64,000 bases of DNA from an uncultured Bacteroidota bacterium (GCA_963733535.1 CAVTDR010000002.1:111775-175774); one strand, 5' to 3'; positions 26,662-45,730 are shown, counted from the stretch's first letter. The notes: generated from the letters alone by a model not told the origin. A program made the numbers and translations.

Positions 26662-26681
26662 TGCAGTCCCGAAGGACTGCA
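26662..26681 (-). terminator. Hairpin terminator after 26710-27351
   Basis: TGCAGTCCcgaaGGACTGCA, followed on the minus strand by a T-rich run. Confidence 0.6.
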
Positions 26682-26709
26682 CTCTCGACAACATACTCGA
26701 TAAACCCGT

Positions 26710-27351: not shown

Positions 27352-27558
27352 TTTTTGACGATTTTAAATTAAACAATTCGGTTTTTGCTTGGACTTGGCA
27401 CGGGGAAAACTCGGCTTTGTCCTTGCTTTATATGGGAAAATTATATCAAAAATCAGGCATTACTATGATTTCCGGTTCTTATGCAAGTCTTTGCACTTGT
27501 TTGCTTTTCAGGTCTTTAATTTGTGTCAGAATGGCGTTTAATCCGGGTATATCATATC

Positions 27559-27790
27559 TATTTTTCAAAAGAAGAAAGAAAAAACAGAAAAAAAGAAAAA
27601 AGAAAGCCTGTCAACAGGCGGGTGAGGCGTGGTGTCAAGGTTTTTGCGATATTTTTTGATACCCTGGGATTAAATGGTAAAAACATCAAAAAATATTGCA
27701 AAACCCAGAGGGCTTGACCTTGACAACACTTTGAGCGATGGCATTGAGCGAACCCGCCTAACTTTGTTTTCTTCTTTTTATTTTTCAAAA
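27559..27790. repeat. MITE-like imperfect palindrome flanked by the 12-nt direct repeat TATTTTTCAAAA
   Basis: The direct repeat is at 27559-27570 and 27779-27790. A polypurine arm (AAAAGAAGAAAG...) opposes a polypyrimidine arm (...TTTTCTTCTTTT). Internal pairings are GGCGGGT/ACCCGCC, TGTCAAGG/CCTTGACA and TTTTGCGATATTTTTTGAT/ATCAAAAAATATTGCAAAA. Confidence 0.6.
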
Positions 27791-28229
27791 TGCTTTTCAA
27801 TGGTCAGACAAGGTGGTACTGATTTGCCAAAAAAAAGTAAGCCACCCCCTAAAAGGGCAGCTTACTAATTGAGAACGAAAGCCACAAGAGCTTAATGTAG
27901 TACCAGCCAGTATGACGAAGTAAATAGCAACGAAAACCAGCAACACGATAAGCGTAAACGAGCAGCCACCAGCTACCCAATTTACAACGAACTATACAGC
28001 GAAACATAATGCCCTTGCGGTCACAGGATGGGGGACAAAGATGCAAGGGCAGACCAAAAAATACTCTTTTTGTTTTGACCTCTTGGTTTTCGGGCAAAAG
28101 AAAAAGGAAGATTTTTTGAGGCTGGCGTAGCGAACCCTTGTCAGCTTTGGCAACCATGCCTGTAACTTTGCTATTATGTTTTGGTGTATTAGAACATATT
28201 CTGATTTCTTTATTCCTGTCGGTTTATAA

Positions 28230-28830
28230 TAATTTCAACTGTGGGGTCGGAAAAAGCAGGTTATACAGCCCTGAGCAAGCGTCGGCATAAGCGGATGCAA
28301 TGAGTGAGGTACGAACGGGTTGCAGACGCTGTGGGCGCGAGCCGTCTGCGAGTGGAGCAAGGGTGGTGCAAAAAATAGCATGAGGAACGAATGCGCTTTG
28401 CAGCTACTGTTTACAGCAAGGTTTTGGCGGAGTTTTTGACATCGAGGGTTGGCATTGTGGGTAGGCTCAAAAACTGTGACAAAACCGCAGCCCGCAGCGA
28501 CCCGCAGGCGAGCCTATTATTGGCAGCCGATGGACTGCAAGTGGCTGAAACGAATGTAGCCGGAATGGAACGAAAGGTGTTGAGCGCAGCGAAGCCCTGT
28601 AGTGCAATGCAGGCGAAATGAGTAAAGCGGCTTGCAGGACAAAAAAGGCTGCCGTGACGATGACGATTGAGCTGCAAGGATTGTGACAGCCTTGCGATAG
28701 CAACCCGAAGGGCGTGGCAATTTTTGCCAATACCTTAGAAAATAAAATACATTATTGGCAAATATTGAAACGGGCTGGCGCAATGCTTGCCGAAAGAGGA
28801 AGAGGAACACCATATAACCTGCTTTTTGCG
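28230..28830 (+). ncRNA. Candidate structured RNA (GC-rich, ORF-poor segment); strand and ends uncertain
   Basis: There are no convincing ORFs, and GC looks markedly higher by eye than in the adjacent AT-rich cargo. Many local stems are present (GCAGACG..CGTCTGC, GCAAGG..CCTTGC, TTGCCAAT..ATTGGCAA), along with GNRA-like loops on the plus strand. Confidence 0.2.
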
Positions 28831-28872
28831 GTGGGTAACAATCGGAAGAGGTATAGTTAGAAATATATAAAT

Positions 28873-29964
28873 CTACCATTCGGCTATATACCCCTCAGGA
28901 TTTGGTTTTTCAATTGATATATCTGATAAATCTGCTATATCGGAAAATTGTTTAATTGAGGCTTTTAGTATAGGCCAAGCTAATGATGCACCTGTACCTT
29001 CTCCTAATCTTAACCCTAAACTTAAGATTGGAACTTGACCAAAATATTCATAAATAAATCTATGACCAGGTTCAGTTGATTGCGTACAGAATATTAGATA
29101 GTCCTTGATATTAGGATTAATAAATGTTGCAGAAAGAGCGGCGGTTGATGCAATAAAACCATCTACTAAAACAGGTTTATGGTGTTCGCAAGCACAGATT
29201 ATGGAACCTATCATACCATTTAATTCATGACCGCCAACCTCAGATAAAAGAGATATTACATTGTTTTTAGGTAAGGATTTAATTCTATATAAAACCTTTT
29301 TGAGTATGTCTATTTTATGTGATAAACCTTTAGGATTTAAACCTGAACCTGGACCTGTAATATCTTCAATTGGGATTCCTAATAAAATTGATGAAATTAA
29401 TGATGCAATGCTGGTATTACCAATTCCCATTTCACCAATCCCAATAGCATCTATATTATCAATATTTTCATTAGTAATTTTATACCCACTATAAATCCCC
29501 TGCAAAACATCGTCAATTGACATTGCAGCTTCATGCATACAATCCTTTGTGCCATTAGCAACTCTGGAATTATAAAACTTTAAATTTGAATTAATTTTTT
29601 CAGGAATTATTATTTGAGAAGCTATACCAATATCAATGATTATTAAATTAGTACCTGTAGAATCTGAAAAAGCATTAATTGTTGATTTACCTTGCAGCAT
29701 ATTTAATACATTGTAATATGTAATCTTATGAGTATATGCTGATACACCTTGTTTAGTTATACCATGGTCACCTGCATATATAAATATAGTGCAAGACTTA
29801 AGAGGTGGGTTTAAATTATTAGTTATATTGACTATTTTCTTTGCCAAAGAATGGAGATTGCCTAAACTACCTAGTGGCATCGCTAAATTCGAAATCTTTT
29901 TTTCCGCTTTTGCACTTAAAAGATTAGTAACCTTGTCTATTTTAATGTTCTCTATTTTAAACAT
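28873..29964 (-). CDS. cobT: Nicotinate-nucleotide--dimethylbenzimidazole phosphoribosyltransferase
   Basis: Contains GDHGITKQGVSAY, GIGEMGIGNTS, VDGFIASTAAL and LRLGEGTGA. The start is placed at the internal Met (MFKIENIK...) to avoid overlap. Confidence 0.85.
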   Translation of the reverse strand: MFKIENIKIDKVTNLLSAKAEKKISNLAMPLGSLGNLHSLAKKIVNITNNLNPPLKSCTIFIYAGDHGITKQGVSAYTHKITYYNVLNMLQGKSTINAFSDSTGTNLIIIDIGIASQIIIPEKINSNLKFYNSRVANGTKDCMHEAAMSIDDVLQGIYSGYKITNENIDNIDAIGIGEMGIGNTSIASLISSILLGIPIEDITGPGSGLNPKGLSHKIDILKKVLYRIKSLPKNNVISLLSEVGGHELNGMIGSIICACEHHKPVLVDGFIASTAALSATFINPNIKDYLIFCTQSTEPGHRFIYEYFGQVPILSLGLRLGEGTGASLAWPILKASIKQFSDIADLSDISIEKPNPEGYIAEW

Positions 29965-29977
29965 TTTAAAATTATTT

Positions 29978-30664
29978 TTAAGGAATTGACTTAAAAAAGT
30001 CAAGGACAATATTTATTTTTTCTGGTATTATTTTTTCACCAACGACAAATGAAGGTATAAAGAGTAGTAATATTAAAAAAACATCACCAATGAATGAATA
30101 TGTGAATGGACCTAATGATTTTAATTTAGGTCTACTAAAATTCCATTCAGAACTAGTATTAATTCCACCCTTTTCGTAGGTAACTAAATTTATTTGTTTG
30201 CTTACTAGTGTTGCTTCCAACATGAAATTAGAAAAAGTTGAAGTAATTAAAGAAGTTTTTTTAAAAAAACTTGTTGAATGCCACCTGGTACCTAAAACTA
30301 AGAATGTATCTGAAAATCTTTCAACAATAACCGTAAATAGACGGATTCCATAGTAAATTGAGTATTCAAGTTTAGAAAAAAGCTTAAAAGACCCATTTTC
30401 CAAACTTTCAAAAAGATGAATAAGAAGCCCTGAAAATGCGACAATTCTAAGAGATAGAATCAAATTGTCATTAAATGGTTTATTGGCTAAAAAATAATTC
30501 AGTATAAAAAGTAAAGATGCAAAGATTATTGGATACACCTTAAAGAGTTTAATGCTTCGTTCACGATATGCCGCCCTAATAAATAGGCATGAAACAGGTA
30601 TTAAGAAACACCAAACTGTGTTTGCGAATAATAGCCATAATATTATTAGTAAAATAAGTATCAT
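29978..30664 (-). CDS. ECF-transporter T-component-like membrane protein (divergent)
   Basis: Multi-TM protein positioned between an ECF-type ATPase and cobT. The ORF could extend to 30712. Confidence 0.5.
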   Translation of the reverse strand: MILILLIILWLLFANTVWCFLIPVSCLFIRAAYRERSIKLFKVYPIIFASLLFILNYFLANKPFNDNLILSLRIVAFSGLLIHLFESLENGSFKLFSKLEYSIYYGIRLFTVIVERFSDTFLVLGTRWHSTSFFKKTSLITSTFSNFMLEATLVSKQINLVTYEKGGINTSSEWNFSRPKLKSLGPFTYSFIGDVFLILLLFIPSFVVGEKIIPEKINIVLDFFKSIP

Positions 30665-30665
30665 T

Positions 30666-31988
30666 TTATATGTATTTAATTGTTCTACATAAACCCGATA
30701 TTGCTTTGTCATGATTAAAAATTATAATAGCTTGATTTTGAAAGCTATTAAGCAGTTTGATAAAAGCAATTTTGCTTTTATAATCTAAACCTGTTGTTGG
30801 TTCATCTAATATTGTGAGTGATTTCGAGTAATATAAAGCACAGGCTATACTTAGCAATTTTTGCTTTGCTCTACAAAGATTTCTTGGGTGAGATTGCCAT
30901 AAGCTTTCGTCAATGCCACATAAGGTTAATAATTTATTAACAGGTAATTCATTCCATATTTTCCAATGGATGAATGACCTTTCTGGAAATTGAAGTGAAA
31001 TACCCGGTCTAATTTTTTTCTTTGATTTTATAAGTTTACCGTTATACTTTTTAATTTTTCCAGTTAATATGCGACCTAAAGTTGTTTTACCACAGCCATT
31101 ATTACCTTCAATAATTACTATTTCGTTTTCTTTTAATTCAAATGAAATAGGTTTTGTTCTGTTCTCAACATAGACATCTATTACGTCTAACAAATTGTCA
31201 CCAATTACACGATATAAAAGATTATCTTTTAGTTTTTTACCTACGATATCATCAGGAAGAAATATTTGCGAATCATAAGGAGAGTCAGTGATAATTCCAT
31301 TTTTATCACCATATAATTCTTTTACACCATGTCCAATAAGTTTGATTTCTTCTGGAGAAAGGCCATGAAGAATAGCGGAACCACCCAATAGGACGTATTC
31401 ATTTAGCCATTTTAGAAATGCTGTTAAAAAGTCTTTGTCTAAGTTTGAAGAACTAAAATCAGCAATAATTAATTTGGGTTTTCTTTCAAATGCATTTGCA
31501 CAAATTAAACGATGTTTTTCACCACCTGAAATAACCTCGGTTTTTCTATCAATTATCTCATATAAACCATATCTAATAAGGTCAGTAGAATGTGGAGTCT
31601 TATTTATTAAAGAAAAAGAATAAAAAAAGTCATCTCTTACTGTTCGTCCAAAAATTGCAATATCTGGATTTTCGTAAATGAAACTTATTTTCTGAGCTCT
31701 TTCTTTTTTAGGTATTTTATATAATTCAATTCCTTCGAGCTTAATAAAGGATAATTCTTCAAGATTAATTTCAATAGGCTGTCTTTCAAGATTATTATCT
31801 TCACCAGGCTTTGTGAGATTTCTCGCAGTATGTAAACCTGAAATTAGGAATAAAAAGTCTTGAGAACTGAATTCAGATTCCGCAAATAGATGAATTATTT
31901 CACCTTTGTTTAAACAAAATCCACTTGAGGAATATTTTTTGTCTTGAATTTCATAACTAAATGCATCACAGGTTAATAAAGGATTCAT
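30666..31988 (-). CDS. Fused double ABC ATPase (ECF A-A' type) with one degenerate site
   Basis: NBD2 has Walker A GNNGCGKTT and Walker B ILDEPTTGLD, but its signature is LCRAKQKL. NBD1 lacks a Walker A (AESEFSSQDF) but keeps the signature SGGEKHRL. Confidence 0.75.
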   Translation of the reverse strand: MNPLLTCDAFSYEIQDKKYSSSGFCLNKGEIIHLFAESEFSSQDFLFLISGLHTARNLTKPGEDNNLERQPIEINLEELSFIKLEGIELYKIPKKERAQKISFIYENPDIAIFGRTVRDDFFYSFSLINKTPHSTDLIRYGLYEIIDRKTEVISGGEKHRLICANAFERKPKLIIADFSSSNLDKDFLTAFLKWLNEYVLLGGSAILHGLSPEEIKLIGHGVKELYGDKNGIITDSPYDSQIFLPDDIVGKKLKDNLLYRVIGDNLLDVIDVYVENRTKPISFELKENEIVIIEGNNGCGKTTLGRILTGKIKKYNGKLIKSKKKIRPGISLQFPERSFIHWKIWNELPVNKLLTLCGIDESLWQSHPRNLCRAKQKLLSIACALYYSKSLTILDEPTTGLDYKSKIAFIKLLNSFQNQAIIIFNHDKAISGLCRTIKYI

Positions 31989-31992
31989 CTTA

Positions 31993-32505
31993 TTATAAAT
32001 TTGAAATTTTTGTTCTAACGATTAAAAGATATGCTATGATGGCCATAATAATGTTTGCTGCGGCAGCAAATAATAAAAATGGAATCAAAGAAGTTGCTAC
32101 AGCCTTTTCAAGATTAAAAACTGGTGTAATCATTAATAATAGAGGACCAATTATGCCATTTAGCAAAACAGCTATAATTCCACTAATAAAAAGGTAAATT
32201 TTTTGACGTTTAATTTTTGAAATGTATCCAAAAATCAGACACCAGAAAAACATTTCTACAGCAACATAAATATGTAAGCCTCCGAAAGGAAAACCAGCAG
32301 TAGCAGCAGAGCCAATATGACCAATTAATCCTACAAAAGCACCAACTAATGGAGTAAAAAATACTGCGGCGAAAAAGGCAGGAGCTGAATCAAGTGCTAT
32401 AGAACCTGCAGGACCAGGAATCTTAATAAGACCTAGTGCTGTTGAAACAACTGAGAAAATGATTATTGCAATCAAATTTCTGCTTGAAAATGAGTCATTC
32501 TTCAT
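31993..32505 (-). CDS. ECF-transporter S-component-like membrane protein
   Basis: 170 aa with 5-6 TM segments and Gly/Ala-rich helices. Sits immediately upstream of the ATPase. Confidence 0.55.
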   Translation of the reverse strand: MKNDSFSSRNLIAIIIFSVVSTALGLIKIPGPAGSIALDSAPAFFAAVFFTPLVGAFVGLIGHIGSAATAGFPFGGLHIYVAVEMFFWCLIFGYISKIKRQKIYLFISGIIAVLLNGIIGPLLLMITPVFNLEKAVATSLIPFLLFAAAANIIMAIIAYLLIVRTKISNL

Positions 32506-33355
32506 AATTATAGGTTTTTATAATATTAATAAATTGGAAATAGTTTTCATTAAAAGTGAAGGATTCAATAATAGGAAGACCATCAAATGATAAAATATAC
32601 TCATATAATTGCTTCGTAGTATATATTTCGACCATAAGCCTTAAAATTCGATAATTGGGATGTTTATCAATCTTGTTGGAGAATATTGTAGAATTCATTG
32701 CTTTAAGCTTAAAATCAACGAGTAAAGAAATTATATCTCTTAAAGATGTAATATTCTTAGTAATTAATCTACTTAATTCGTCTTCTTCAATTGATGGCAC
32801 TTGTATTAAATTGATACATGATTTTTTTATTTCATTGAGAAAATTATTCATCGATTTGACGATACTGCCATTAAGCTTGGGATTAAACTCTCTATAGCTC
32901 GTATAATAAAAAGATTTATACAATGTGTTCCAAAGACTATAAAAGTCAAATGCTTCTTCTTTTTCTAATTCCTTTATTAAAGAAGTTTCTTTTATATAAT
33001 CTCTGAATTCCTTTCTATGTAAAAAGTAGTTTTTCAAATTTTCACTTTCCTTATAATTCTTTAATTGATAGTTTGTTCTTTTTAATGTCTCTTCATTTTG
33101 ATTAAGTCTTACAATCGAAACTTTTATGGTAAGAACAGTTATAAAAGCAGCAGCGATTTTAATGCTTGTGCTGTATATAGAAATAAAATTATTAATTCCT
33201 TCTATGCTAAAAAGTAGCTTCAGAGGCCATTCTTCTTTAACAGTTACAAAAATTGAAACAATTAGAATTATAAATAATAAGGCTATAATTGCATTAATTG
33301 CTAAAGTCCAAAGTTTTAAACTAAAGCTGGGTGAGTTATTTAAATCTACTTCCAT
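32495..33355 (-). CDS. Hypothetical membrane-anchored protein
   Basis: 286 aa with 2-3 N-terminal TM helices and a helical soluble tail. It overlaps the S-component start by 11 nt and lies 17 nt after pAgo. Confidence 0.5.
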   Translation of the reverse strand: MEVDLNNSPSFSLKLWTLAINAIIALLFIILIVSIFVTVKEEWPLKLLFSIEGINNFISIYSTSIKIAAAFITVLTIKVSIVRLNQNEETLKRTNYQLKNYKESENLKNYFLHRKEFRDYIKETSLIKELEKEEAFDFYSLWNTLYKSFYYTSYREFNPKLNGSIVKSMNNFLNEIKKSCINLIQVPSIEEDELSRLITKNITSLRDIISLLVDFKLKAMNSTIFSNKIDKHPNYRILRLMVEIYTTKQLYEYILSFDGLPIIESFTFNENYFQFINIIKTYNYEE

Positions 33356-33372
33356 ATATAGAAATCTTTATA

Positions 33373-35478
33373 TTATAAAAACCACAAATTATCTTTCCCG
33401 AATGGTGGTATTTCGTGCCCTTCGAAGTGAGGGAACATTTCGGCCACTAATTCGGGGTATTTAATTGTTACTGGTAAATTTTGTTGCCTAACGGATTTCC
33501 AATACATCCGACTGAATTGATAGACCTGGTTTAATAGCTCTTTTATGACTTTATAATCCTTTTCAAGCTCTCTTTTATTACAGGTAATCTTAACCTTAAT
33601 GGGGAAGGGGAACCCGTCTTTTACATTGAAATTACTGTTTTTATAGCGTGTATTGTTGAACAGGAGAAACTGATTATATCCTATGTTTATAAATGTTCCG
33701 CTATGTGGCATTAGGTTATCAAAGTTATTGTCGAAAGCAACAATATCGTGCGATTCGGTTTTATTGATTGATACTATGTAAACAGGTACGTTTATTCCGA
33801 GGTTTTTCAAACCATTTTCTATGGGTTCAAGCTCTTTCTGGCTAATGTTTTTGTAAAAATGAATGATTAGTCTTTGTAGATTCCGGTTTACTGATGCGTA
33901 TTCTTTAACAGACCTGATTATTGAACCAGCAAGTTCATCAATCTGGTTATTCATAAAACATTCGAAACGGTTGAATTTTCCATTGTTGTTAAAGCTAAAG
34001 GCACTGCCAATGTATTGTATGTTTTCATCCAAATTCCGGAAAGCACCAACGCCCACGATTAACTCGTTACGTAAAGGAACATCCAAACGCCAGGGAACGC
34101 CGTCTAATTTGGCTAAAACAGCAATTGAAATGTTATTAAGGCTAAATATATAGCTGGTATTGCTTTTAATCTTTTGAGCGTCTATTGTCTGTGAGGTTAT
34201 TTTGTGTTTTAACAGTAATTCTTTAATCTTATAATAAATGGCCTTTTCCGATTTGGTGGCATTGTCTTTGGCAAAGGGGCTTATATATATTGCTATGTAG
34301 CGTACTTCGTCTTTAAATTCACGCTTACGCAGATATTCTTCGATTTCGGGTAGTGGGTTCTCTTGATTATTAAACACAATACTAAAGCCCGGCAAGGTGA
34401 AAAACGGAACTTTGGCAAAGTTTGTAAGGCCTTTGAATGAGATGTTATCGAAGTGTAACCCTTTTTCAAGAAATTCCTTTAATTGTGTGGCTTTGTCTTT
34501 ATCTGAATTGTGGCAAATAAAAAAGAACTGTACTTTATTGTATGGCGATACTTCGAGCGGACCATGTTTGTCCATTCCTAAATAGGGTACACTGTGGTAT
34601 TTCTTATCGCCAAATAAAAGCAGGTTGCTGTTATCGGCTACTTCACCAATTTTAACATCTTCAACCGGAATAAAACTATCCGATACAAGGGGAATTACTT
34701 TTTTGAACTCCTCAGTATTCAGGTAGGTAATGTAAAAATCAGTTATATGCTTTTTGAATTTTAGATAGGGGTTTGTTTTATCTGGTTTATCGCCTGGCTG
34801 GTTTAAGGCATCCCTGATATCGAAATTCCAAACAGGAAACACTACGTTCAGGTTTCTTTGCCCTTCTTCTGATAAATCTTCGTGCCGGATTAAATTATTC
34901 CGAAAAATAACCCAGTTAAAACATTCAGGGGCAACCTCCGACATTAGCGTAACAATACTTTTACGGAATACCTTTGAAACACCGGCATAGGCTATGAGCA
35001 ATTCGGGGTCTCCGGTAATGCGGCCAAACTGGACTTTCAGCGTGTATTTTTCAAAAAGGTTGTATTCGTTATTTATCTGTTTTGAAGCTATCCAGATTTC
35101 GGTATCGCAAACAAAATTAGGGTTTACAATAAATCCATTGCTTTTAAAATAATCGTGTATTTGCTTATTGTAATATCGTTTTAAAAGCGAGGCTGTAAAG
35201 GCCGAGTTTTTAACCTTAACAGTTTTTTCTTCATCTTCTTCGGAAGTAATGTAAGTCGGTATGCTGTTTTTGGTTACAGCAAACAAACCGCTGTGGTTAT
35301 TGGTATATTGGGTATAATAGTGTTCCTGTTCCCCAAATTGTTCTCTTACCTCATTGGGTACTAATGTATGAAACACCCTGAAAGAATTTTCTACTTCTTC
35401 ATTCGAGAAATGAAAGGTGTATTCATCCGAAGGATGTTTAAAAGTTAGGATATTAAAGGTAAGATTTGGCGTACTCAT
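33373..35478 (-). CDS. Prokaryotic Argonaute, long and catalytically inactive (long-B-like)
   Basis: 701 aa. MID-like AIYYKIKELLLKHKITSQTIDAQKIK and PIWI core NISIAVLAKLDGVPWRL. Catalytic positions are substituted: IVGVGAF replaces G-x-D-V, and IIHFYKN replaces ..RDG. Confidence 0.8.
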   Translation of the reverse strand: MSTPNLTFNILTFKHPSDEYTFHFSNEEVENSFRVFHTLVPNEVREQFGEQEHYYTQYTNNHSGLFAVTKNSIPTYITSEEDEEKTVKVKNSAFTASLLKRYYNKQIHDYFKSNGFIVNPNFVCDTEIWIASKQINNEYNLFEKYTLKVQFGRITGDPELLIAYAGVSKVFRKSIVTLMSEVAPECFNWVIFRNNLIRHEDLSEEGQRNLNVVFPVWNFDIRDALNQPGDKPDKTNPYLKFKKHITDFYITYLNTEEFKKVIPLVSDSFIPVEDVKIGEVADNSNLLLFGDKKYHSVPYLGMDKHGPLEVSPYNKVQFFFICHNSDKDKATQLKEFLEKGLHFDNISFKGLTNFAKVPFFTLPGFSIVFNNQENPLPEIEEYLRKREFKDEVRYIAIYISPFAKDNATKSEKAIYYKIKELLLKHKITSQTIDAQKIKSNTSYIFSLNNISIAVLAKLDGVPWRLDVPLRNELIVGVGAFRNLDENIQYIGSAFSFNNNGKFNRFECFMNNQIDELAGSIIRSVKEYASVNRNLQRLIIHFYKNISQKELEPIENGLKNLGINVPVYIVSINKTESHDIVAFDNNFDNLMPHSGTFINIGYNQFLLFNNTRYKNSNFNVKDGFPFPIKVKITCNKRELEKDYKVIKELLNQVYQFSRMYWKSVRQQNLPVTIKYPELVAEMFPHFEGHEIPPFGKDNLWFL

Positions 35479-35492
35479 GCTATTAATGTTCT

Positions 35493-36836
35493 TTATATAT
35501 CATCGAATTGCTCTATTATTTCTTTTGCTGTGATTACTGAATTCATACTCTTTATTGTATCAATAATTTGGGATAGCAATAATTTGTCTTTGGTTTTATA
35601 GGCTAACAAGTACAAAAGAGCTTCTGAAGTCAATAGTATAAATCTCTTTACTTGTGTATTCCAGGTAATTTCATCAATAAAGTTGGTTAGGTCTGATTTA
35701 AAGGAATTACTTACGATAATAAAACCAATCTTTCTAAATCCTTCTTTTTCGAGCTTTGGGCAATAATAACTGATATATTCCCGGATAGCCCTATCATCGG
35801 TGCCTAATGTATAACCACTACCATAAGCTTTAGCATCAACAATAAACGCAGTGTGTTCTTCTCTGAATTTAATAATTGCATCAGGGTTGCGACCTGTTCC
35901 TTGCCCAAGTATTTCAACCTCAAAGTCCATCAATTTAAAAATTTCGGCCACCATTTGCTCATACTCGCTTCCTTTAGCTGAAGCTGATTTTTCAGAATGG
36001 TTACCTAATTCCACCAATTTGGCTACTTTGGGTATCAGGTATTCATAAATATCAAAATTTGCTTTAAGTTCAATTGTTTCAGCAGTTTCTGAAACACTGG
36101 CTTTATTCTCAGTTTGTTCGTGTTTTGTCTTTTTATGTGCCACAATTGGCTTTCCAGTAAAGTTCCAAAAAGCATGTTCGGCATCCCAATTGGTAATATC
36201 TTTTTTAGTATGTGATTTTAATACTTCTTTTATTTCTTCGTTAAGGTTATAGAAATATTCATATGTAGCACTCTGGGATTTCTGTTCTTTCCAAATATTG
36301 AGTTCTTTAAATGCATTGATTAAAGAAGTATAAAGTATAGGCCATTTTTGATTATTATGTATTTGCCAGAAATATGATAGGAAATAACCTGTTGAACCAG
36401 GATTGGGAGCCTTTCGTTTGTCTTTTGCCTTGATAAAATAGCTGTTTGCATATTTCTCTAATGCTTCTATCTTTTTGAGAGCATTAGGCAGGTCTTTAGG
36501 CAAGGTAATGGTTTCTTTTATAAGAGCAGTTATTTGTTCCATGTTCTGTTCGCTACTATTTGTTAGCTGGTTAAAAAACATTTGCCCTTTTGTAGCTGTA
36601 AAGCCCCAAAGATTATTACGTTTATTAAAGCTGTCGATATTCGTTTTAAACTCAATCAGAGTATACTCACCTTTTAAGAAAGTACCGATATATTCCTGCA
36701 ACTTTGTAAATGCTTTTATCCTATTGCTATCAATATTTTCAAGAGGTTTACCTTTAGTATCTAAAACTGTTTGATTTGCTTTTATATAGGCATCCCAAAT
36801 TGAGTTTATTTGTTTAATTGTATTTGATGGTATCAT
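35493..36836 (-). CDS. pAgo-associated nuclease with FokI-type PD-(D/E)xK cleavage domain
   Basis: The C-terminal GRNPDAII...FIVDAKAYGSGYTLG resembles the FokI catalytic segment (..KPDGAIY...IVDTKAYSGGYNL, recalled from memory). The start is set at the Met 1 nt after the upstream stop. Confidence 0.7.
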   Translation of the reverse strand: MIPSNTIKQINSIWDAYIKANQTVLDTKGKPLENIDSNRIKAFTKLQEYIGTFLKGEYTLIEFKTNIDSFNKRNNLWGFTATKGQMFFNQLTNSSEQNMEQITALIKETITLPKDLPNALKKIEALEKYANSYFIKAKDKRKAPNPGSTGYFLSYFWQIHNNQKWPILYTSLINAFKELNIWKEQKSQSATYEYFYNLNEEIKEVLKSHTKKDITNWDAEHAFWNFTGKPIVAHKKTKHEQTENKASVSETAETIELKANFDIYEYLIPKVAKLVELGNHSEKSASAKGSEYEQMVAEIFKLMDFEVEILGQGTGRNPDAIIKFREEHTAFIVDAKAYGSGYTLGTDDRAIREYISYYCPKLEKEGFRKIGFIIVSNSFKSDLTNFIDEITWNTQVKRFILLTSEALLYLLAYKTKDKLLLSQIIDTIKSMNSVITAKEIIEQFDDI

Positions 36837-36837
36837 A

Positions 36838-37482
36838 TTAGAAATCTTCAAGTGAACTACTTTTAAAAGTTTTATTTCTTCCAAAGGCATAAGCAAAAGC
36901 AATAAGGACAACTGTTCCTAGAAAAATAGTTAGAAGCGTGTTTTTTATTTTTATAGAGAAAAAGATTGTATGAAAAAGACCAGCAACAAACCATACAAAA
37001 AGAAACACTTGACCAATTGAGATATTTATTTTAGACACTGAATAAGCTCCAGCCTCTTTAGAAAAAATACTGTTTTTAAACTTGTTTCTTTTGTAAAATT
37101 TAAGATTTGGATAATTAAAACCTCCTATTTTACTTGCTTTTTTGGTAGTATATTTTTCATCTGTTTCAAGCGCTCCAATTGCCTTCTCATAATTTTCGTA
37201 CCAGGCTTTTGAGCCTTTACCCATTTTAATCCAAAGAATTGAAAAAACTATACCTAATAATGAAATGATATAACCTAATACATTAAGAAATATAAAGCTA
37301 TCAATGTTTTCTGGTTTCAAATAATCAGGAATTTTAATTAAGACTGCTCCATAGCCGGTAAAGCACAACACAAGAAATGCAGTTAAAAAAATTGAACGCT
37401 GCCATAAATTGGAAAGCTCAAAATCCCGACAACGCCAAAATGTTTCGTGAATATCCCTTATATCAATTTTATCTTCCTTCAT
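36838..37482 (-). CDS. Four-TM hypothetical membrane protein
   Basis: 214 aa with two TM pairs separated by a soluble loop. Wedged between the specificity subunit and the nuclease. Confidence 0.5.
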   Translation of the reverse strand: MKEDKIDIRDIHETFWRCRDFELSNLWQRSIFLTAFLVLCFTGYGAVLIKIPDYLKPENIDSFIFLNVLGYIISLLGIVFSILWIKMGKGSKAWYENYEKAIGALETDEKYTTKKASKIGGFNYPNLKFYKRNKFKNSIFSKEAGAYSVSKINISIGQVFLFVWFVAGLFHTIFFSIKIKNTLLTIFLGTVVLIAFAYAFGRNKTFKSSSLEDF

Positions 37483-37486
37483 ATAT

Positions 37487-38896
37487 TTAACCTAATATCA
37501 TTTTTTCAACTTCCTGTTTTGCAGAATCTAATATACTTATTGCATCTTCTTTTTGGGATTTAGCTTGTAAATGTATATCTTGAATATGTTTAGCAATTTC
37601 GTTTTGTTTTTCTATTGGAGGTAATGGGATTTTTAACGATTTTAATAAATCAAGACCTATGCCTGATTGGTTATTCCAGTTTGTACAAATGGAATAAAAT
37701 ACTTTATGCCTTTGATACAGATTAAGCATTATCCATAAGTAGTCAGGATTTATCTTCTCTTTAGCAACCTTAATTTTAGTAATATGGTTGGAATAACACA
37801 GTTCTATTTGCTCTTTAAGAATGGCTGTTTTTCCAACTAATTCCTGACTATTAGTATTATTAAAAAGAACATCATCAACATCAAGGCAGTCGAATTCTGA
37901 ATCATAAGGAATATAAACATTTCTATCAAACTTAAGCAGGCCGTTTTCGTCAATATTTGTTGGCCGTATTTGTATAATTCCATTTCCGTCTATTGCTTGG
38001 TCTTGTTTTCCAGCACCTATACCAGACTTAAATTTTATGGCTATTTCTTTCAATTCTATACTTTGATAGCTACCCGAATTGAATTTTGATAAATCTGATG
38101 CGTAAAAAATAGGGTCTAATCTTTCGCCAGTAACTTTACTAAACAATGTAGTGAAAATCCTACTTTCTAATGAGTTGTCCTTTTCATGCAAATGAATCCC
38201 TAATTCATTTAATAGATAAGTATCTATACTTGCCATAAGTTTGAAGGCTTGCGTCTCTTTTATTTTTTTTGCGGCGTAAGAGCTTTCAATTAAATCAACA
38301 ATTTTTTGTTGTATTTTTATTGGAGGAATAGGAATCATTAAAGATTTGTACTCCTCTGCATTTATGTTTGGCTGACCAGCTGCTCTTTGAATTGACTTAA
38401 CCCAATTTTGGTAAGGTGATAGCTGCGAGTAAGTAAAAAAATAGCTAGGTAAAATAAGGGTTTCATCTACTACAATTCTAATCATATAACCTGCAAAAAA
38501 ACAATCATAGGTTACGTTATTCTTATTGTGAAGATATGCTTTGCCTACAGTTGCACCGCTTCTTGCCAATAAAATATCATTATTATTTAAAATATATTTT
38601 TCTTCAATTGTCTCTGCTGTTACCCCTATTGAGTCCTTTAAAAGCCCATATTCATCAATATCTGTAATCCTAATATATCGTGCTTCAGATAAAGATTTTC
38701 TTTCAATTCCACTTTCATTTGCGCCATATTGTGGCGCTTTTTTTAATAAATTCTTAAGAGCAATTGAATTGAATTTAAAGGATTTAGTTTTTCTATTGTA
38801 TAAAACCATTTCTGGGTCAATTCTACCTGCCAATTCAGACCGATTGACGAGAAAAATCTTATTTGGAACATTATGTATAGATAGACTGAATATCAT
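37487..38896 (-). CDS. Restriction-modification specificity subunit (HsdS-like, two TRDs)
   Basis: Conserved central (IPPIKIQQKIVDLIE) and C-terminal (LPPIEKQNEIAKHIQ) helices. Confidence 0.85.
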   Translation of the reverse strand: MIFSLSIHNVPNKIFLVNRSELAGRIDPEMVLYNRKTKSFKFNSIALKNLLKKAPQYGANESGIERKSLSEARYIRITDIDEYGLLKDSIGVTAETIEEKYILNNNDILLARSGATVGKAYLHNKNNVTYDCFFAGYMIRIVVDETLILPSYFFTYSQLSPYQNWVKSIQRAAGQPNINAEEYKSLMIPIPPIKIQQKIVDLIESSYAAKKIKETQAFKLMASIDTYLLNELGIHLHEKDNSLESRIFTTLFSKVTGERLDPIFYASDLSKFNSGSYQSIELKEIAIKFKSGIGAGKQDQAIDGNGIIQIRPTNIDENGLLKFDRNVYIPYDSEFDCLDVDDVLFNNTNSQELVGKTAILKEQIELCYSNHITKIKVAKEKINPDYLWIMLNLYQRHKVFYSICTNWNNQSGIGLDLLKSLKIPLPPIEKQNEIAKHIQDIHLQAKSQKEDAISILDSAKQEVEKMILG

Positions 38897-40389
38897 AATT
38901 CGTTATATTTTACCTTTAAAATCTCAGGAAGATTATTTTTTATAATTGATTTAATATCGTTGTAATAGCCAGTACTTGAATAAGGTATATATTGAAGTTT
39001 ATCCATATCAAAAGGTACTTTACCTGCTGACTGCACATATTCTTCATTTTTATCAAAAGGTACTTTAATAACGTCATTTTCAGCTTTAATAAGTATCATT
39101 GGCTTATTATTACCTTCGGCAAGTCCTATCTCATAAATAACATTGTCATTGCAACTTGTAAGGTCTGCAATGAATATATCGCATTCTTTAATTTTTTTAA
39201 TTAAGCGTTGGTCTATTCTTTGACTTGCCCCTCTAAATCTCATTATGGGAATTAACTCTAATTCTACCTTTTCTTTTTCTTGAATTTCTTTAAGAACTTC
39301 CTTAAAGAGTTTATTGTACTCATTTACTTGTTTATGAGAAACATAAGGCATTGCAACAAAAACATTATATGGCCCTTTTTTGTGGGTGTTTTTATAAAAA
39401 TCAATTATACTTACAGGAGAAGCCTCTTGAATATTAAATAATTGATTACCAACAATCCAGTCCTTAAATCTGAAATAATTGGACTCATCATTAATCCTAA
39501 AGTATAAAAGAGACAGTAGGATATTTATATTGGGATTGCTTTTTAATTTATCATTTTCGTAATACTGAGTATCTATATATAAGAGCGAACGCTTAATTTT
39601 CTCAAAGGGTTGTGGTTCAATAAACAATTTGAAAAATGCGACACAAAATGAATATATTTCGTTTTTAATAATTTTTTTAATTTCTGAGTATTCACAACCT
39701 TCAATTTCTTCAGCTAATTTTTCAATATTTAAAGCATTGCTACCTAATAATTTTTCTTTTTCAGGGTCAGTAAAATTGGGATTTGTTAAAATTGCTTTTA
39801 AATTCTGTTCTGTAGTAAGAGGTTTTGCCTGAGAATTAATTAGATAGAAAAAAGCAGTTTCATATTTTGTTGCTTCATCAGATTTACCTTGAAGTAAAAC
39901 CGAGAATGGAACGGTAATATTACCGATAGTCTGTTTCAAGCTATGGGAATCTGAATCTGTGTTTTCCGAACTTAAAATTTCATCAACAGCGCTTAACCTG
40001 TGATTACCATCGATTCTTGATAGATATTTTCGATTTGAGTTGGTAAACTCAAGAGATATAACTTTTACACTTGACTTTTTCTCAAAGTTTTCTTGAAATG
40101 AGAATTTACCTTTAACTAAACGGATTTCATCAGTAAATACCTTATTTGCACCCTCCCTAATAGAATAAATAGCATCTGAATCATTGAATTGCATACTAAA
40201 TATTAATTCTGGAAAGAATCTAAAGGTTCCATTTCTCAAGAAATCAATAATGTTTTCAATTCGAGTTGTATCAACCTCACGCTGATATGAATCGGTTTTT
40301 GAAATATTCGCCAAGTCTTTTAGTGATGCATATCCTCTAAAAATCAGCATTCCACCAAATGTCTGTTCAATTATGCCTTTTAAAATCAT
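38893..40389 (-). CDS. Fusion protein: ParB/DndB-like DGQHR-type domain plus nucleoside 2-deoxyribosyltransferase/TIR-like domain
   Basis: N-terminal ..SYQREV...RIDGNHRLSAV. C-terminal YNVFVAMPY...CDIFIADLTSCNDNVIYEIGLAEGNNKPMILI. It has 4-nt overlaps with both neighbours. Confidence 0.6.
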   Translation of the reverse strand: MILKGIIEQTFGGMLIFRGYASLKDLANISKTDSYQREVDTTRIENIIDFLRNGTFRFFPELIFSMQFNDSDAIYSIREGANKVFTDEIRLVKGKFSFQENFEKKSSVKVISLEFTNSNRKYLSRIDGNHRLSAVDEILSSENTDSDSHSLKQTIGNITVPFSVLLQGKSDEATKYETAFFYLINSQAKPLTTEQNLKAILTNPNFTDPEKEKLLGSNALNIEKLAEEIEGCEYSEIKKIIKNEIYSFCVAFFKLFIEPQPFEKIKRSLLYIDTQYYENDKLKSNPNINILLSLLYFRINDESNYFRFKDWIVGNQLFNIQEASPVSIIDFYKNTHKKGPYNVFVAMPYVSHKQVNEYNKLFKEVLKEIQEKEKVELELIPIMRFRGASQRIDQRLIKKIKECDIFIADLTSCNDNVIYEIGLAEGNNKPMILIKAENDVIKVPFDKNEEYVQSAGKVPFDMDKLQYIPYSSTGYYNDIKSIIKNNLPEILKVKYNEL

Positions 40390-42566
40390 AATTCATTATT
40401 TTCGATAGCATTAATAAATTTGGTCAATTCGTCACCAATAATATCTAACTCGTTATTATTAGTTTTCTTACCAGTTGCATCATAACCAATATCATCAGCA
40501 ATAGCCATGAAAATTTGATAATCATCAAGTTGAGTTTGTTTAGCTACAATATATTTATCGGTTAAATCTTCTTTAAGTTGGTTCACTTTTTCATTAAACT
40601 GATTCTGTAATTCTGTTTTGTCTTCTTTGATAAGCTCACCAATTTCTTTTTTGGATGCTTTGGGATTTTGCTTTTTAATGTTGTCTTCTAATTTTTTAAT
40701 AGCAATATTTTTCTCTTTCTCCCATTGCTCCACATTTAAAATGTATTTATTATCGGTAAGTAAATAGGATTTTATACTTTGTTTTTTTGCTTCAATAGCT
40801 ACACTTTTTGATTTATTGTGTTTCCTCAAGAATAATACAGAACTTTTAACCCCAGCACCCGTTGCTGAGAAAGCTGTTTGCGGCATCGAAACTACGGCAA
40901 CAATACGAAACATTTCTTCGATATTATCACGAACATATTGCAAGCTACTATTGGTTAATATACCATCTGGCACAACAATAGCCAAATAACCACCTTCTTT
41001 AAGAAAATTATGACATTGTTCGATAAAAAGTATCTCTGTACTTTGGTTATCTCTTTGCTCTTCTCTTGTAGCTTTAACAGCTAACCAGTCTTCCTCTTTT
41101 TTGCCTAGTTTAAACTCTCTTAAGTATGCTTTTTCCGTTTGGCGGATAATGCTACCAAAAGGTGGATTTGTAACAATAAAATCGAAATGATTGTACTTAA
41201 AGCCAGTGTTTTTAGTTATTTTCTCAATTTCGGTAGGCGCTAAGAGACCATCGGATGTTATTACGTTTGTATGACCATCATCGTGAATAATCATGTTCAT
41301 TTTAGCTGCACGAGATATTTGCTCGTTGATTTCTATCCCATATAAATTCTTTTCAGCAAAGTCGTGCCAAAATTTGTAGTGCTTTTGGTTTTGCTTTACA
41401 TCGGTTTTATAATTAGGATATAGTTTATTGGCTTGTTCACGCACCTTATTCAAAGCATACAATAAAAAGCCTCCACTGCCGCATGAAGTATCTAATACAA
41501 ATGAATCATTTTTAATTGGAAGTGCATCGGTAGCAAATTTTACAATTGGACGTGGTGTAAAATATTGACCAAAATTACCACGGAAGAATGAACCCATAAA
41601 GGTTTCAAAAGCACGGCCTTTGCTGTCGAGGTCAGTTTCTCCTAGATTTATACTTTCTAAGTAACCTACAACAGTTCTTACTTTTTCGGGTGTTAAACGA
41701 ATGTTATCTCTGAAAACTTCGGCATCTTTTTTACGGCCTTCTTCATATAGCGCCAATACACGATTGAACAAATTTTTATTCTCTTTATCTCTACGTTTAT
41801 TCGGGTCAGGTTCTTCATTTATACTTACAGTTATTATTTGAAAATCGTAAGGTTGACCTGGAGTTCTGTCTTTTCTTTCATCCCAAATTTTGCAAAATAT
41901 CAATTTATCCAATTCGTCAAACGCTTCGGAAGGATTCAACTGACCGCCTGCCCAAAGCGCATCATGTGCTTGTTTAAAACGACGTGTCAATTCTTCTTGG
42001 TCAATAGTTGTAAGGTCGAAGAAATTTTGCTTACCAGCTTCTTGCTTCAAAGAATTAGCATCGTAAGCATATTTATAATTTGCTAAATATTTTACACCAA
42101 ATTGTGGAATGTCGGGAAGAGTATTTCGAAAAAGTTTTGCTTTATCTACTTCAAAATATTCATTCTTAATTTCTGATGTTACCCATACATATTTTACTTC
42201 GTTTGGCAATGCATAAGCGTAACTATATGCTTGTTCAATTGCTTGTAAAAATTCTTGTTCACTAACTTCTTGTTTTTTACATTCTACTAAAATATGAGGG
42301 TGTAAGCAAGCATCATCATTAAATACAACTATATCGGCCTCCTTTTTTTCACTACCCATAGTAACCATTTCGAATTGCTTAATTCGTTCAGGTTTGTAAC
42401 CATAATGAAAAATCAACTTTAGAAAAGCTTCAGCTTGTACTTTTTCTTCGGGACTTTTGTAATTACGCTTTTTACCTTGATTTAAGTAAATAATTTGTAC
42501 AATTTCTCCGTTTTCTTCAATTGTAGAAATAAGTTTGCGCTTTATACCGTCGTTTATAAGACTCAT
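40386..42566 (-). CDS. Nuclease-methyltransferase fusion (HSDR_N-type PD-(D/E)xK plus gamma N6-adenine MTase)
   Basis: N-terminal EADIVVF...ILVECKK. Motif I is VLDTSCGSGGFL and motif IV is VTNPPFGS. The tail is a coiled coil. No SF2 HsdR motor is present in the island. Confidence 0.75.
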   Translation of the reverse strand: MSLINDGIKRKLISTIEENGEIVQIIYLNQGKKRNYKSPEEKVQAEAFLKLIFHYGYKPERIKQFEMVTMGSEKKEADIVVFNDDACLHPHILVECKKQEVSEQEFLQAIEQAYSYAYALPNEVKYVWVTSEIKNEYFEVDKAKLFRNTLPDIPQFGVKYLANYKYAYDANSLKQEAGKQNFFDLTTIDQEELTRRFKQAHDALWAGGQLNPSEAFDELDKLIFCKIWDERKDRTPGQPYDFQIITVSINEEPDPNKRRDKENKNLFNRVLALYEEGRKKDAEVFRDNIRLTPEKVRTVVGYLESINLGETDLDSKGRAFETFMGSFFRGNFGQYFTPRPIVKFATDALPIKNDSFVLDTSCGSGGFLLYALNKVREQANKLYPNYKTDVKQNQKHYKFWHDFAEKNLYGIEINEQISRAAKMNMIIHDDGHTNVITSDGLLAPTEIEKITKNTGFKYNHFDFIVTNPPFGSIIRQTEKAYLREFKLGKKEEDWLAVKATREEQRDNQSTEILFIEQCHNFLKEGGYLAIVVPDGILTNSSLQYVRDNIEEMFRIVAVVSMPQTAFSATGAGVKSSVLFLRKHNKSKSVAIEAKKQSIKSYLLTDNKYILNVEQWEKEKNIAIKKLEDNIKKQNPKASKKEIGELIKEDKTELQNQFNEKVNQLKEDLTDKYIVAKQTQLDDYQIFMAIADDIGYDATGKKTNNNELDIIGDELTKFINAIENNEL

Positions 42567-42586
42567 ATATATAGTAATTTTATACT

Positions 42587-42862
42587 TTACAAATTATTTG
42601 AAGCAATATTTAATGCATCTTTCGCTGCATCTTCATTTTTCACTATTTCCAATATTTGGTTTGCCAACCAGATAGCGATTAATTCTTTTGGGTCAACTTT
42701 ATAAATTTGTGCGAGTTTTAAAATAAATTCACGTTTAATATTCTTTTTTCCTTGCTCCATTTTACTAATGTAGGCAGTGTCAACTTCAAGCTCTGCCGCC
42801 ACCTGCCGAAGCAGAAGACCCTTTTGCTCACGTAATTCTCGTAGTTTCTTGCCGATTATCAT
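42587..42862 (-). CDS. XRE-family HTH regulator (controller-like) heading the cargo operon
   Basis: 91 aa with LRELREQKGLLLRQVAAELEVDTAYISKMEQG. Confidence 0.8.
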   Translation of the reverse strand: MIIGKKLRELREQKGLLLRQVAAELEVDTAYISKMEQGKKNIKREFILKLAQIYKVDPKELIAIWLANQILEIVKNEDAAKDALNIASNNL

Positions 42863-42981
42863 CTTTTTGTTTTTTTACTTGTCATAATTAGTCAAATATA
42901 TAAAATAAATGCAAACAAAAGAAAGCAGTTAGTAAATAAATACCAACCAGATATTAACCAAGCTGTGAATAAGTTATGCCT

Positions 42982-43008
42982 TGCAAAGTTTGCAAAGTAT
43001 GCAAACTA
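42982..43008 (+). repeat. Three tandem 9-bp iteron-like repeats TGCAAAGTn
   Basis: TGCAAAGTT TGCAAAGTA TGCAAACTA, with an inverted copy (ACTTTGCAT) at about 43050-43058. Confidence 0.6.
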
Positions 43009-43015
43009 TACGAGC

Positions 43016-45725: not shown

Positions 45726-45730
45726 ATTCT

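Follow-up and report, generated by a model that had tools for sequence, protein, structure and literature searches.

Accretion of restriction, Argonaute and ECF-CobT modules as the probable origin of a twelve-gene string in a Bacteroidota mobile element

On the minus strand of a 64,000-nt stretch of DNA from an uncultured Bacteroidota bacterium (GCA_963733535.1, CAVTDR010000002.1:111775-175774; hereafter the window), twelve closely packed genes bring together a restriction-modification (RM) system, a prokaryotic Argonaute (pAgo) with a FokI-like nuclease beside it, and an energy-coupling factor (ECF) transporter followed by a CobT-type enzyme. This raises the question whether the string is a single pathway, in which base or nucleotide chemistry serves immunity, or a row of unrelated modules that came to share one site. 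We consider it probable that the string is an operon by accretion, the cargo of a mobile element rather than a co-evolved pathway, and that the ECF-CobT cassette is an autonomous hitch-hiker within it. The anchors of the element family would be the XRE regulator, a methylase with a nuclease-like N-terminal domain (M), a specificity subunit and an inactive long-B Argonaute, and three variable slots would lie between and after these anchors, with cassettes being swapped almost exactly at the boundaries of open reading frames (ORFs). In the window, slot (i), between M and the specificity subunit, would be filled by a guest gene with a DGQHR domain and a nucleoside 2-deoxyribosyltransferase (NDT)/TIR-like domain (DGQHR-NDT); slot (ii), between the specificity subunit and the pAgo, by an 8xMP membrane protein and a nuclease with a recognition domain and a FokI-type cleavage domain; and slot (iii), after the pAgo, by the five-gene ECF-transporter/CobT cassette. 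Near-zero intergenic spacing and a common promoter in such a cargo bay do not amount to a common mechanism.

Layout and predicted transcription of the string

An earlier note on this DNA had described twelve co-directional genes with gaps of at most 20 nt and no internal hairpin/T-run terminator, and had argued for a single 14-kb transcription unit. All twelve ORFs were found on the minus strand from 42862 down to 28873, at the coordinates given there, and the junction lengths were reproduced. From XRE to cobT they amount to 20, -4, -4, 4, 1, 14, 17, -11, 4, 1 and 13 nt, several of them being overlapping stop and start codons. These lengths are based on the starts ATG 36836 for the nuclease, ATG 30664 for the T-like gene and ATG 29964 for cobT; with the longest-ORF starts, the two 1-nt junctions become overlaps of 47 and about 53-75 nt and the overall picture is unchanged. 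Junctions of 20 nt or less account for 11 of 11 within the string, as compared to 12 of the 34 same-strand junctions elsewhere in the window (35%). If junctions are independent, a run of eleven would arise by chance with a probability of about 1e-5, and the run is non-random.

Because the host belongs to the Bacteroidota, as its GldL-like, DUF6266, BT4734-like and DUF3987 genes indicate, the minus strand was scanned for the Bacteroidetes -7 motif TAnnTTTG instead of sigma-70 sites, and a sigma-70 promoter scan was set aside on the same ground. Exact copies of the motif occur five times in 15.3 kb, compared with about nine expected, and the only copy that precedes a gene is TATATTTG at 42900, located 38 nt upstream of the XRE ATG and accompanied by TTTG at -33. 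The junctions within the string are too short to accommodate internal promoters. The terminator scan gave no convincing minus-strand terminator inside the string, in agreement with the earlier note: the only terminator-like match (32070-32054, within the S-component gene) has a 7-bp stem with three G-C pairs and a poor T tail, and the first strong one follows 1 kb past cobT. Since there is one canonical promoter, no internal terminator, no room for promoters in the junctions and several overlaps of stop and start codons, the twelve genes are probably read as one transcription unit; this is the most economical reading of the sequence, and at this in silico level the claim of the note holds. All twelve genes would depend on the XRE promoter, because the inserts arrived with almost no flanking DNA. 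Domains were assigned with Pfam, NCBIfam and PADLOC, by which the domain calls that the note had made for the string genes were borne out (Table 1).

Table 1. Genes of the string, from XRE to cobT, and larger features of the surrounding element, in window coordinates. Length is in amino acids (aa) unless stated otherwise.
Feature	Position	Strand	Length	Matches and remarks
XRE/HTH_3 regulator	42587..42862	-	91 aa	Pfam HTH_31/HTH_3, E 4e-14
N6-adenine methyltransferase (M) with N-terminal PD-(D/E)XK-like HSDR_N_2 domain	40386..42566	-	726 aa	Pfam N6_Mtase 2e-36, HSDR_N_2 6e-16; PADLOC MTase_I 7.7e-184
DGQHR (DndB-like) N-domain and NDT/TIR-like C-domain	38893..40389	-	498 aa	Guest gene between M and specificity subunit
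Specificity subunit with two target-recognition domains	37487..38896	-	469 aa	Pfam Methylase_S, 2 stretches; PADLOC Specificity_I 1.9e-52
8xMP-family membrane protein	36838..37482	-	214 aa	Pfam PF24838 5e-23
Nuclease with FokI-cleavage/Mrr-type C-domain	35493..36836	-	447 aa	Pfam FokI_cleav_dom 1.5e-8, Mrr_cat
Long-B-type pAgo, predicted inactive	33373..35478	-	701 aa	PADLOC pAgo 2e-263, end to end; Pfam Piwi 2e-16
Cassette gene 1, two-transmembrane anchor with soluble domain of ~200 aa	32495..33355	-	286 aa	
Cassette gene 2, ECF S component	31993..32505	-	170 aa	PF12822 (ECF_trnsprt) 9.5e-10; PF07155 2.7e-6
Cassette gene 3, fused AA' ABC ATPase	30666..31988	-	440 aa	Pfam ABC_tran, 2 stretches
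Cassette gene 4, divergent EcfT/CbiQ-like membrane protein	29978..30664	-	228 aa	
Cassette gene 5, CobT-type NaMN:base phosphoribosyltransferase	28873..29964	-	363 aa	Pfam DBI_PRT 1.9e-97
Bacteroidetes-type promoter candidate	42893..42930	-		Motif scan and sequence; -33 TTTG, -7 TATATTTG
Five-gene ECF-CobT cassette	28833..33369	-	4.5-kb insert	blastn and junction alignments; GC 0.29
Conserved G+C-rich (46%), apparently non-coding segment	27867..28832	-	~1 kb	92% identical to sister element L001
First strong intrinsic terminator 3' of the string	27836..27866	-		14-bp stem, T7 tail
Integrative element	26474..49260	-	22.8 kb	Within 3' end of mnmE

The element at mnmE and the exchange of its modules

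The element that carries the string is bounded by the direct repeat TTTCC(C)GATACA(G/A)AAA, which encodes FCIGK. The mnmE gene ends with ...FCIGK* at 49242 (end region 49242-49260), and a second FCIGK*-coding remnant lies at 26441-26493, with the original mnmE terminator hairpin coming after its FCIGK* copy (26474-26491). Repeats of GGCAACAAATA near both element ends (26531, 49103 and 49135) are probably integrase arm sites. The backbone comprises, in this order, HTH_17, a tyrosine integrase (47588-48682), DUF6617, two further HTH_17 genes, a BT4734-like gene, a DUF3987/PriCT primase, the cargo and DUF6266. Song et al. (2023; PMC10620215) described VirE_N (og_54) genes that precede some long-B pAgos by two to eight genes; VirE_N equals BT4734-like_N, and the genes described there are the backbone of this element.

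Comparison with a sister element (L001), on a contig of a Bacteroidetes HGW-17 metagenome-assembled genome (MAG), separates backbone and anchors from inserts. Its backbone is common to the window at 85-92% nucleotide identity (46568-42147 at 85%, 28835-26589 at 92%), and its cargo contains XRE, M, the specificity subunit and the pAgo at 71%, 61%, 30% and 88% amino acid identity, respectively. Within the M gene, the first ~420 nt are 85% identical and the remainder 68%. No homologue of DGQHR-NDT, 8xMP, the FokI-like nuclease or any ECF/CobT gene was found in L001, which has a 116-aa gene, a DUF5655/NucS-like protein and RhuM between specificity subunit and pAgo and, after the pAgo, AraC, DUF6448, a 2-hydroxyacid dehydrogenase and hemerythrin, separated by larger gaps. 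The homology between the two elements breaks at both ends of the pAgo gene, at its ATG and 3 nt past its stop, and a third time about 40 nt past the stop of cobT, and these breakpoints define the sequence from 28833 to 33369 as a discrete 4.5-kb insert. The 286-aa membrane protein encoded directly behind the pAgo belongs to this ECF-CobT insert and not to the pAgo. The composition of the pAgo, with a G+C content at third codon positions (GC3) of 0.385, resembles that of the element backbone (0.35-0.37), whereas the neighbouring genes differ: GC3 is 0.21-0.24 in M, DGQHR-NDT, specificity subunit and 8xMP, 0.27 in the nuclease and 0.18-0.22 in the cassette.

Other relatives of the pAgo likewise stand in changing company. 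Upstream of the pAgo in L020 (90% amino acid identity) are DISARM-like genes and downstream HSP20/DnaJ; L021 (62%) has NOV_C upstream and a Gabija-like pair of OLD-ATPase and UvrD downstream; and L022 (62%) has NOV_C, DUF5655 and SLFN_AlbA_2 upstream and downstream genes unrelated to those of the string. No ECF/CobT gene, FokI-like nuclease, 8xMP or DGQHR-NDT was found beside the pAgo in L001, L020, L021 or L022, and the downstream genes differ among all of these relatives. In L021, a 66-nt duplicate of the pAgo 3' end with 89% identity lies beyond the Gabija-like insert that directly adjoins the pAgo (4895-4960 and 9068-9133), which shows that the site behind the pAgo gains cassettes. The last 146 nt of the window pAgo gene (region 33373-33522) are 86-91% identical at the nucleotide level in four of five relatives, L021 with its 62% protein identity among them; in L022 the match is limited to the final 23 nt. 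From these alignments, the pAgo 3' end appears to act as a recombination or insertion anchor for cassettes. Loss is represented by L002, a Muribaculaceae MAG in which only the C-terminal 316 pAgo codons are present (9845-10942; 94% amino acid identity), fused directly after homologues of the genes of the window's integrase region at the same mnmE site; L002 is a deletion derivative of the element.

A conserved backbone with slots that swap unrelated cassettes, and tightly packed co-directional genes, are likewise features of defence hot spots in mobile elements, such as the variable cargo sites of P2/P4 elements (PMC9122126) and Bacteroidota elements with BT4734-like (VirE_N)/DUF3987 primases. 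Unlike in those, one slot here holds a cassette of a transporter and a biosynthetic enzyme with essentially no spacer, so that a metabolic module is probably read from a defence promoter. Splicing of cassettes at ORF boundaries means that guilt-by-operon inference can mislead the discovery of defence systems, and an element family with fixed anchors (XRE-M, specificity subunit, long-B pAgo) and three swap slots is a testable proposition. The conserved segment between the terminator and the cassette could serve the element as an origin of transfer (oriT) or in regulation, or could encode an uncharacterised RNA; its ORFs gave no Pfam match, and an Rfam E-value scan returned only chance-level microRNA matches.

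Argonaute, nuclease and restriction genes

The defence genes of the string most likely act as separate layers: restriction guarded by methylation, the effector encoded by the guest gene, a nuclease that either stands alone or is linked to the pAgo, and guide-directed sensing by the pAgo. The pAgo is predicted from its alignment to be a catalytically inactive long-B-type protein. It is a full-length PIWI-containing protein whose closest characterised relatives are long-B, and its nearest solved structures are AfPiwi, EcAgo (BPAN) and RsAgo. Aligned to AfPiwi, it reads VGVGA and HFYKN at the positions that we assign to 'GxD' and 'RDG' of active Argonautes, and the DEDX tetrad is lost.

The known effectors of long-B pAgos, which may be a RecB-like nuclease, Sir2 or a transmembrane protein, are products of the gene that directly follows the pAgo gene, and effector and pAgo co-evolve (PMC10620215). 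Here, the gene immediately downstream is the first gene of the ECF-CobT cassette, which is found elsewhere without a pAgo. The locus resembles the BPAN, BPAS and BPAM systems (PMC10620215; EcBPAN structure 23wq) in its full-length PIWI protein without catalytic residues and in having a PD-(D/E)XK nuclease and membrane proteins nearby. In contrast to these systems, it has no conserved downstream effector, the downstream transmembrane gene being part of the cassette, and its nuclease lies upstream, belongs to the FokI/Mrr type instead of being RecB-like, and is not shared by close relatives. That this clade of long-B pAgos has no fixed effector partner can be tested.

The possibility that the FokI-like nuclease, perhaps together with 8xMP, is nevertheless a dedicated pAgo effector, encoded upstream and causing abortive infection in the manner of BPAN/BPAM, is a competing explanation for this sub-module, which we regard as rather unlikely. 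The junction of only 14 nt between nuclease and pAgo genes would fit such a partnership, long-B pAgos are known to work with PD-(D/E)XK nucleases or transmembrane proteins (PMC10620215), and PD-(D/E)XK-like genes (NOV_C, DUF5655/NucS-like) precede other pAgos of the clade at a distance of a few genes. However, neither the FokI-like nuclease nor the 8xMP gene was found beside any of the five pAgo relatives compared, and the pairing of pAgo and nuclease, by which the earlier note had combined the two into one module, is therefore not conserved. The known effectors are encoded downstream of the pAgo and co-evolve with it (PMC10620215), and the GC3 of the nuclease gene departs from that of the pAgo (0.27 versus 0.385). 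A further argument comes from the architecture of the nuclease, since a recognition domain joined to a FokI cleavage domain, with an N-terminal domain like that of McrB-like ATPases, is typical of self-sufficient restriction enzymes. The translated C-terminal domain contains the motifs PD...VDAKAY, and the N-terminal ~250 aa are homologous to the N-terminus of an ATPase assigned by Pfam to AAA_5 (McrB-like) on a plasmid of the haloarchaeon Natronosalvus (L024:6001-6753; tblastn, 30% identity, E 2e-29). This similarity suggests that the N-terminal domain is a DNA-reader domain common to different restriction effectors, and as a domain shared with a McrB-like ATPase it speaks for a restriction enzyme that combines recognition and cleavage in itself, rather than for an effector dedicated to the pAgo. 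A literature search for '8xMP' returned nothing relevant.

The XRE protein likely controls the RM genes. The translation of M contains a D...ECK motif, and no HsdR-like ORF was found in the string or among the scanned ORFs of the element, so that the set of HsdM, HsdS and HsdR that makes up a Type I system is incomplete. Because of this lack of HsdR, the RM part resembles either a BcgI-like (Type IIB) system or a Type I-like one without R subunit. HSDR_N_2 combined with N6_Mtase, the D...ECK motif and a separate specificity subunit with two target-recognition domains match the BcgI-like layout, as judged from domain architecture alone.

Guest effectors are known from within Type I RM loci, examples being PrrC in the EcoprrI locus and RhuM or Abi genes between hsd genes. 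Similarly, a non-RM gene is placed here between M and specificity subunit, with ATGA overlaps of stop and start codons at both ends, and the sister element L001 has RhuM in its RM-pAgo string. Unlike in the Type I loci, the guest is a fusion of DndB-like and NDT/TIR-like parts and not an anticodon nuclease, HsdR is missing, and M bears a PD-(D/E)XK-like N-terminal domain of its own, as in the BcgI-like Type IIB architecture. The DGQHR match (NCBIfam, 7e-10) is below the curated cut-off of the model (39 versus 58.85 bits); the C-terminal part matches Pfam Nuc_deoxyrib_tr at 1.2e-6 and a TIR effector in PADLOC at 5e-7. Residues 119-429 of the guest protein align with the C-terminal half of an N6 DNA methylase from a Leisingera plasmid (L023:6001-6945; 24% identity, E 4e-15), which hints at a middle domain recurrently tied to methyltransferases.

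The ECF-CobT cassette and other parts of the window

The cassette encodes both the S component and the two ABC ATPase domains (A and A') by which an ECF transporter is recognised. The S component is its best-conserved gene, with 63-71% identity within the low-GC clade of cassettes and 46% to the distant clade; the best PDB match is 4hzu_S with an E-value of 0.4, and there was no close match to a characterised S family. In all seven AA' ATPases aligned, the N-terminal domain has LSGGE and no Walker A motif, and the C-terminal domain has Walker A and B motifs and a degenerate signature. This pattern implies one consensus composite ATP site and one degenerate site, as in a single-site ECF energiser. 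For the T-like protein of the window, neither Pfam nor the PDB gave a match, and a word-indexed homologue search retrieved only the protein itself. T components of the CbiQ/EcfT family are marked by Ala-Arg-Gly coupling motifs. A single-sequence search of 1.84 billion representatives yielded a family of 27 clusters, the consensus of which contains the EcfT-type ARGG in place of the EKGG of the window copy. Among Pfam families, CbiQ alone was matched recurrently, and weakly (3 of 27 members, best E 0.0035); the family profile gave only chance matches to PDB sequences, and the single-sequence AlphaFold model (pLDDT 46) was too poor for fold comparison. The CobT protein is full length (PF02277, 326.9 bits, 326 of 329 profile positions) and, aligned to the solved CobT 1j33, keeps the motifs GEMGIGNT of the phosphate loop and LGEGTGA with the catalytic Glu.

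The first gene of the cassette has orthologues with 37-43% identity at the head of the cassettes in L003, L005, L007 and L015, and its family profile gave only chance matches to PDB sequences. The window copy alone has a weak PADLOC match to 2TM_IV (2.5e-7) and an NCBIfam match of 2e-4, which is under the cut-off; none of the six other first-gene proteins scanned, four of them true orthologues, matched a 2TM effector. We considered whether the 286-aa protein might serve the pAgo as a 2TM effector of the BPAM or retron kind and rejected this idea, as the gene occurs without pAgo and the match was not reproduced.

Among 5.8 billion proteins, the clade of the window CobT comprises six clusters with 56-60% identity, and the next relatives reach at most 44%. 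Every member of the clade that was looked up (L003/4, L005/6, L007/8/9 and L015-17) lies in the same five-gene array, in which a membrane protein of ~270-300 aa is followed by an S component of 170 aa, an AA' protein of ~440 aa, a further membrane protein of ~230 aa and CobT; each of the five is homologous to its counterpart in the window, at 33-71% identity. The GC-rich, distant loci L011/12 and L013/14 (CobT 42-43% identical) retain S, AA', T and CobT and have an unrelated polytopic membrane protein as first gene. Altogether, six further distinct contexts contain the S-AA'-T-CobT core, preceded in four by the same first gene, and in none of the six is the core located beside a pAgo or an RM system. 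Its flanks elsewhere include a BT4734/VapE primase, an IS3 transposase with RadC/GIY-YIG, SLFN_AlbA_2, a NERD helicase and a LanM cluster, and in the low-GC clade the cassette is more AT-rich than its flanks. One cassette, 99.95% identical at the nucleotide level, leads into three different continuations 322 nt after the cobT stop (L015:4585-4907, L016:2321-2644, L017:1740-2063), one of which is a NERD/UvrD-type helicase; the divergence reflects either recent mobility or an assembly repeat boundary. Metagenome scans with the first protein or the S component gave nothing or one 1-kb fragment, and the S component was not found in searches of viral contigs and plasmids. Because the scans with S component and first gene gave almost nothing, the census of cassettes rests on the look-ups of CobT homologues. 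The ECF-CobT cassette is a rare, divergent, mobile and autonomous unit.

ECF-CbrT transports cobalamin and cobinamide (PMC5997447), and CblT/CblS serve the salvage of 5,6-dimethylbenzimidazole (DMB) and alpha-ribazole (PMC8123684). By analogy with these systems, the cassette most likely imports and activates a cobamide lower-ligand base. The S component would bind a small heterocyclic base or its riboside, the single-site AA' ATPase and the divergent T subunit would power the uptake, and CobT would trap the imported base as alpha-ribotide, using nicotinate mononucleotide (NaMN). As judged from knowledge of the enzyme families, the alpha-ribotide could then be passed to CobS/CobC of the host for attachment or remodelling of cobamide lower ligands. 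In common with CbrT, CblT/CblS and CbiMNQO, the cassette has a small S component with a pair of ABC ATPases and a T subunit, and an ECF importer genomically coupled to a lower-ligand enzyme; for its additional membrane protein, CbiN in CbiMNQO provides a precedent of an extra small membrane subunit. It differs from the cobamide ECF systems in being a dedicated (group I-like) module, in the fusion of A and A' with one site degenerate, in a T subunit barely recognisable as CbiQ and in an extra membrane-anchored protein of ~280 aa, and it is carried by mobile elements with no riboswitch in the loci scanned. We propose that the cassette would represent an accessory metabolic trait that hitch-hikes on mobile elements. 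Such a cross-phylum combination of ECF and CobT could be a mobile trait of lower-ligand salvage or remodelling, relevant to the competition for corrinoids in anaerobic communities.

Several observations weigh against this reading of the cassette and the string. No cobalamin riboswitch was detected with Rfam in the window, L001, L003, L004, L005, L007 or L008, and a hidden B12 riboswitch in or near the cassette was rejected at the Rfam gathering thresholds. Neither cobU nor cobS nor cobC was found beside any cassette, so neither kind of linkage to lower-ligand metabolism, by neighbouring genes or, in the loci scanned, by riboswitch, was found. The next-nearest CobT proteins (P0013 and P0015) are encoded in canonical cobC-cobU-cobT-cobS operons; the cassette CobT shares the fold and catalytic motifs of such enzymes, whereas its clade is at most 44% identical to them and never adjoins cobU, cobS or cobC. 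The cassette also bears an extra conserved membrane-anchored protein (gene 1), and the assignment of the T subunit, which comes from weak sequence matches, is probable. Several of its surroundings are defence-like (SLFN_AlbA_2, NERD helicase, RadC/GIY-YIG and the present island), and the comparison draws on few related loci, as genome and metagenome scans gave few matches. Co-transcription would furthermore make the modules co-regulated here, and a functional interplay peculiar to this copy may exist. The hitch-hiking of B12 lower-ligand salvage, which the earlier note had mentioned as its alternative, is still the better-supported reading, albeit for a cassette without the usual B12 hallmarks.

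An explanation that would accommodate these peculiarities is that the cassette is an autonomous conflict system acting without pAgo, either in phage defence or by warding off or exploiting a toxic base analogue. CobT would then consume NaMN/NAD or produce a toxic or signalling alpha-ribotide, with the membrane proteins as sensor or effector. We consider this improbable. The cassette is indeed rare, mobile, compositionally foreign and found in variable or defence-like surroundings, it lacks a riboswitch in the loci scanned and adjoining cob genes and departs from canonical CobT, and its ATPase, T subunit and CobT clade are all unusual. Its first gene encodes a two-transmembrane protein with one weak match to the retron type IV/Ec48 2TM effector, but this match is absent from the six other first-gene proteins scanned, and in the distant clade the first gene encodes the unrelated polytopic membrane protein. 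Moreover, S, AA' and T have the usual make-up of an importer, the catalytic motifs of CobT are those of the biosynthetic enzyme, the other cassette genes have no matches to PADLOC defence models beyond generic ABC, and no copy of the cassette was found in phage-derived or plasmid collections. There is a correspondingly slim chance that the cassette is an unrecognised, horizontally mobile module of conflict or competition, found in defence-type hot spots across phyla, rather than a part of housekeeping B12 assembly. If so, it would import a heterocyclic base and convert it to alpha-ribotide in order to detoxify or weaponise a base analogue, drain NaMN/NAD or re-tool corrinoids competitively.

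The weakest explanation is an immune operon that works as one whole, with base or nucleotide chemistry, be it modification of DNA or nucleotides, an unusual alpha-ribotide or consumption of NaMN/NAD, provided by the NDT-like enzyme, CobT and the ECF importer and used or triggered by RM and pAgo: depletion of NAD or nucleotides is a known immune strategy, both enzymes belong to families of N-glycosidic-bond chemistry, and the packing is tight with a single promoter and no internal terminator, but the modules assort independently in every relative examined, pAgos with 88-90% identity occur without cassette and NDT gene, the cassette occurs in six other contexts without pAgo or RM, and the inserts have boundaries at ORF ends and module compositions that differ, which makes this explanation very improbable. 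The earlier note had put forward such a role of base or nucleotide chemistry in immunity as a speculation and had named the absence of the ECF-cobT block from related islands as an observation that would speak against it; the block is absent from L001, L020, L021 and L022, and the modules do not co-occur in related loci. Its division of the string into modules stands as far as the domains of the genes are concerned and needs correction in two respects, since the 286-aa gene is the first gene of the ECF-CobT cassette and the association of pAgo and FokI-like nuclease is not retained in the relatives. There is no sign that CobT/ECF chemistry takes part in pAgo or RM immunity, and our literature search gave no publication in which CobT or ECF transporters are connected with defence against phages. 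The accretion of independent modules is thus the explanation that we prefer for the string as a whole.

Outside the element, the window contains further features. A group II intron occupies 13830-15591, with Rfam matches to D1-D4 at 13830-14151 followed by a reverse transcriptase/maturase ORF at 14182-15591. Between 18576 and 23640, the gene for a 903-aa HEAT-repeat protein overlaps that for a 787-aa protein that has a SPASM domain in addition to two domains of the radical-SAM type, and the two may form a peptide- or protein-modification pair. Two adjacent paralogues with GldL N-terminal domains (24454-26433) are situated just outside the element end. At 54845-60394, a DnaE2-like Pol III alpha subunit (1009 aa) is encoded close to a Y-family polymerase (IMS/IMS_C, 392 aa), the two genes being separated by a 288-aa gene, a layout that resembles the imuA-imuB-dnaE2 mutasome.

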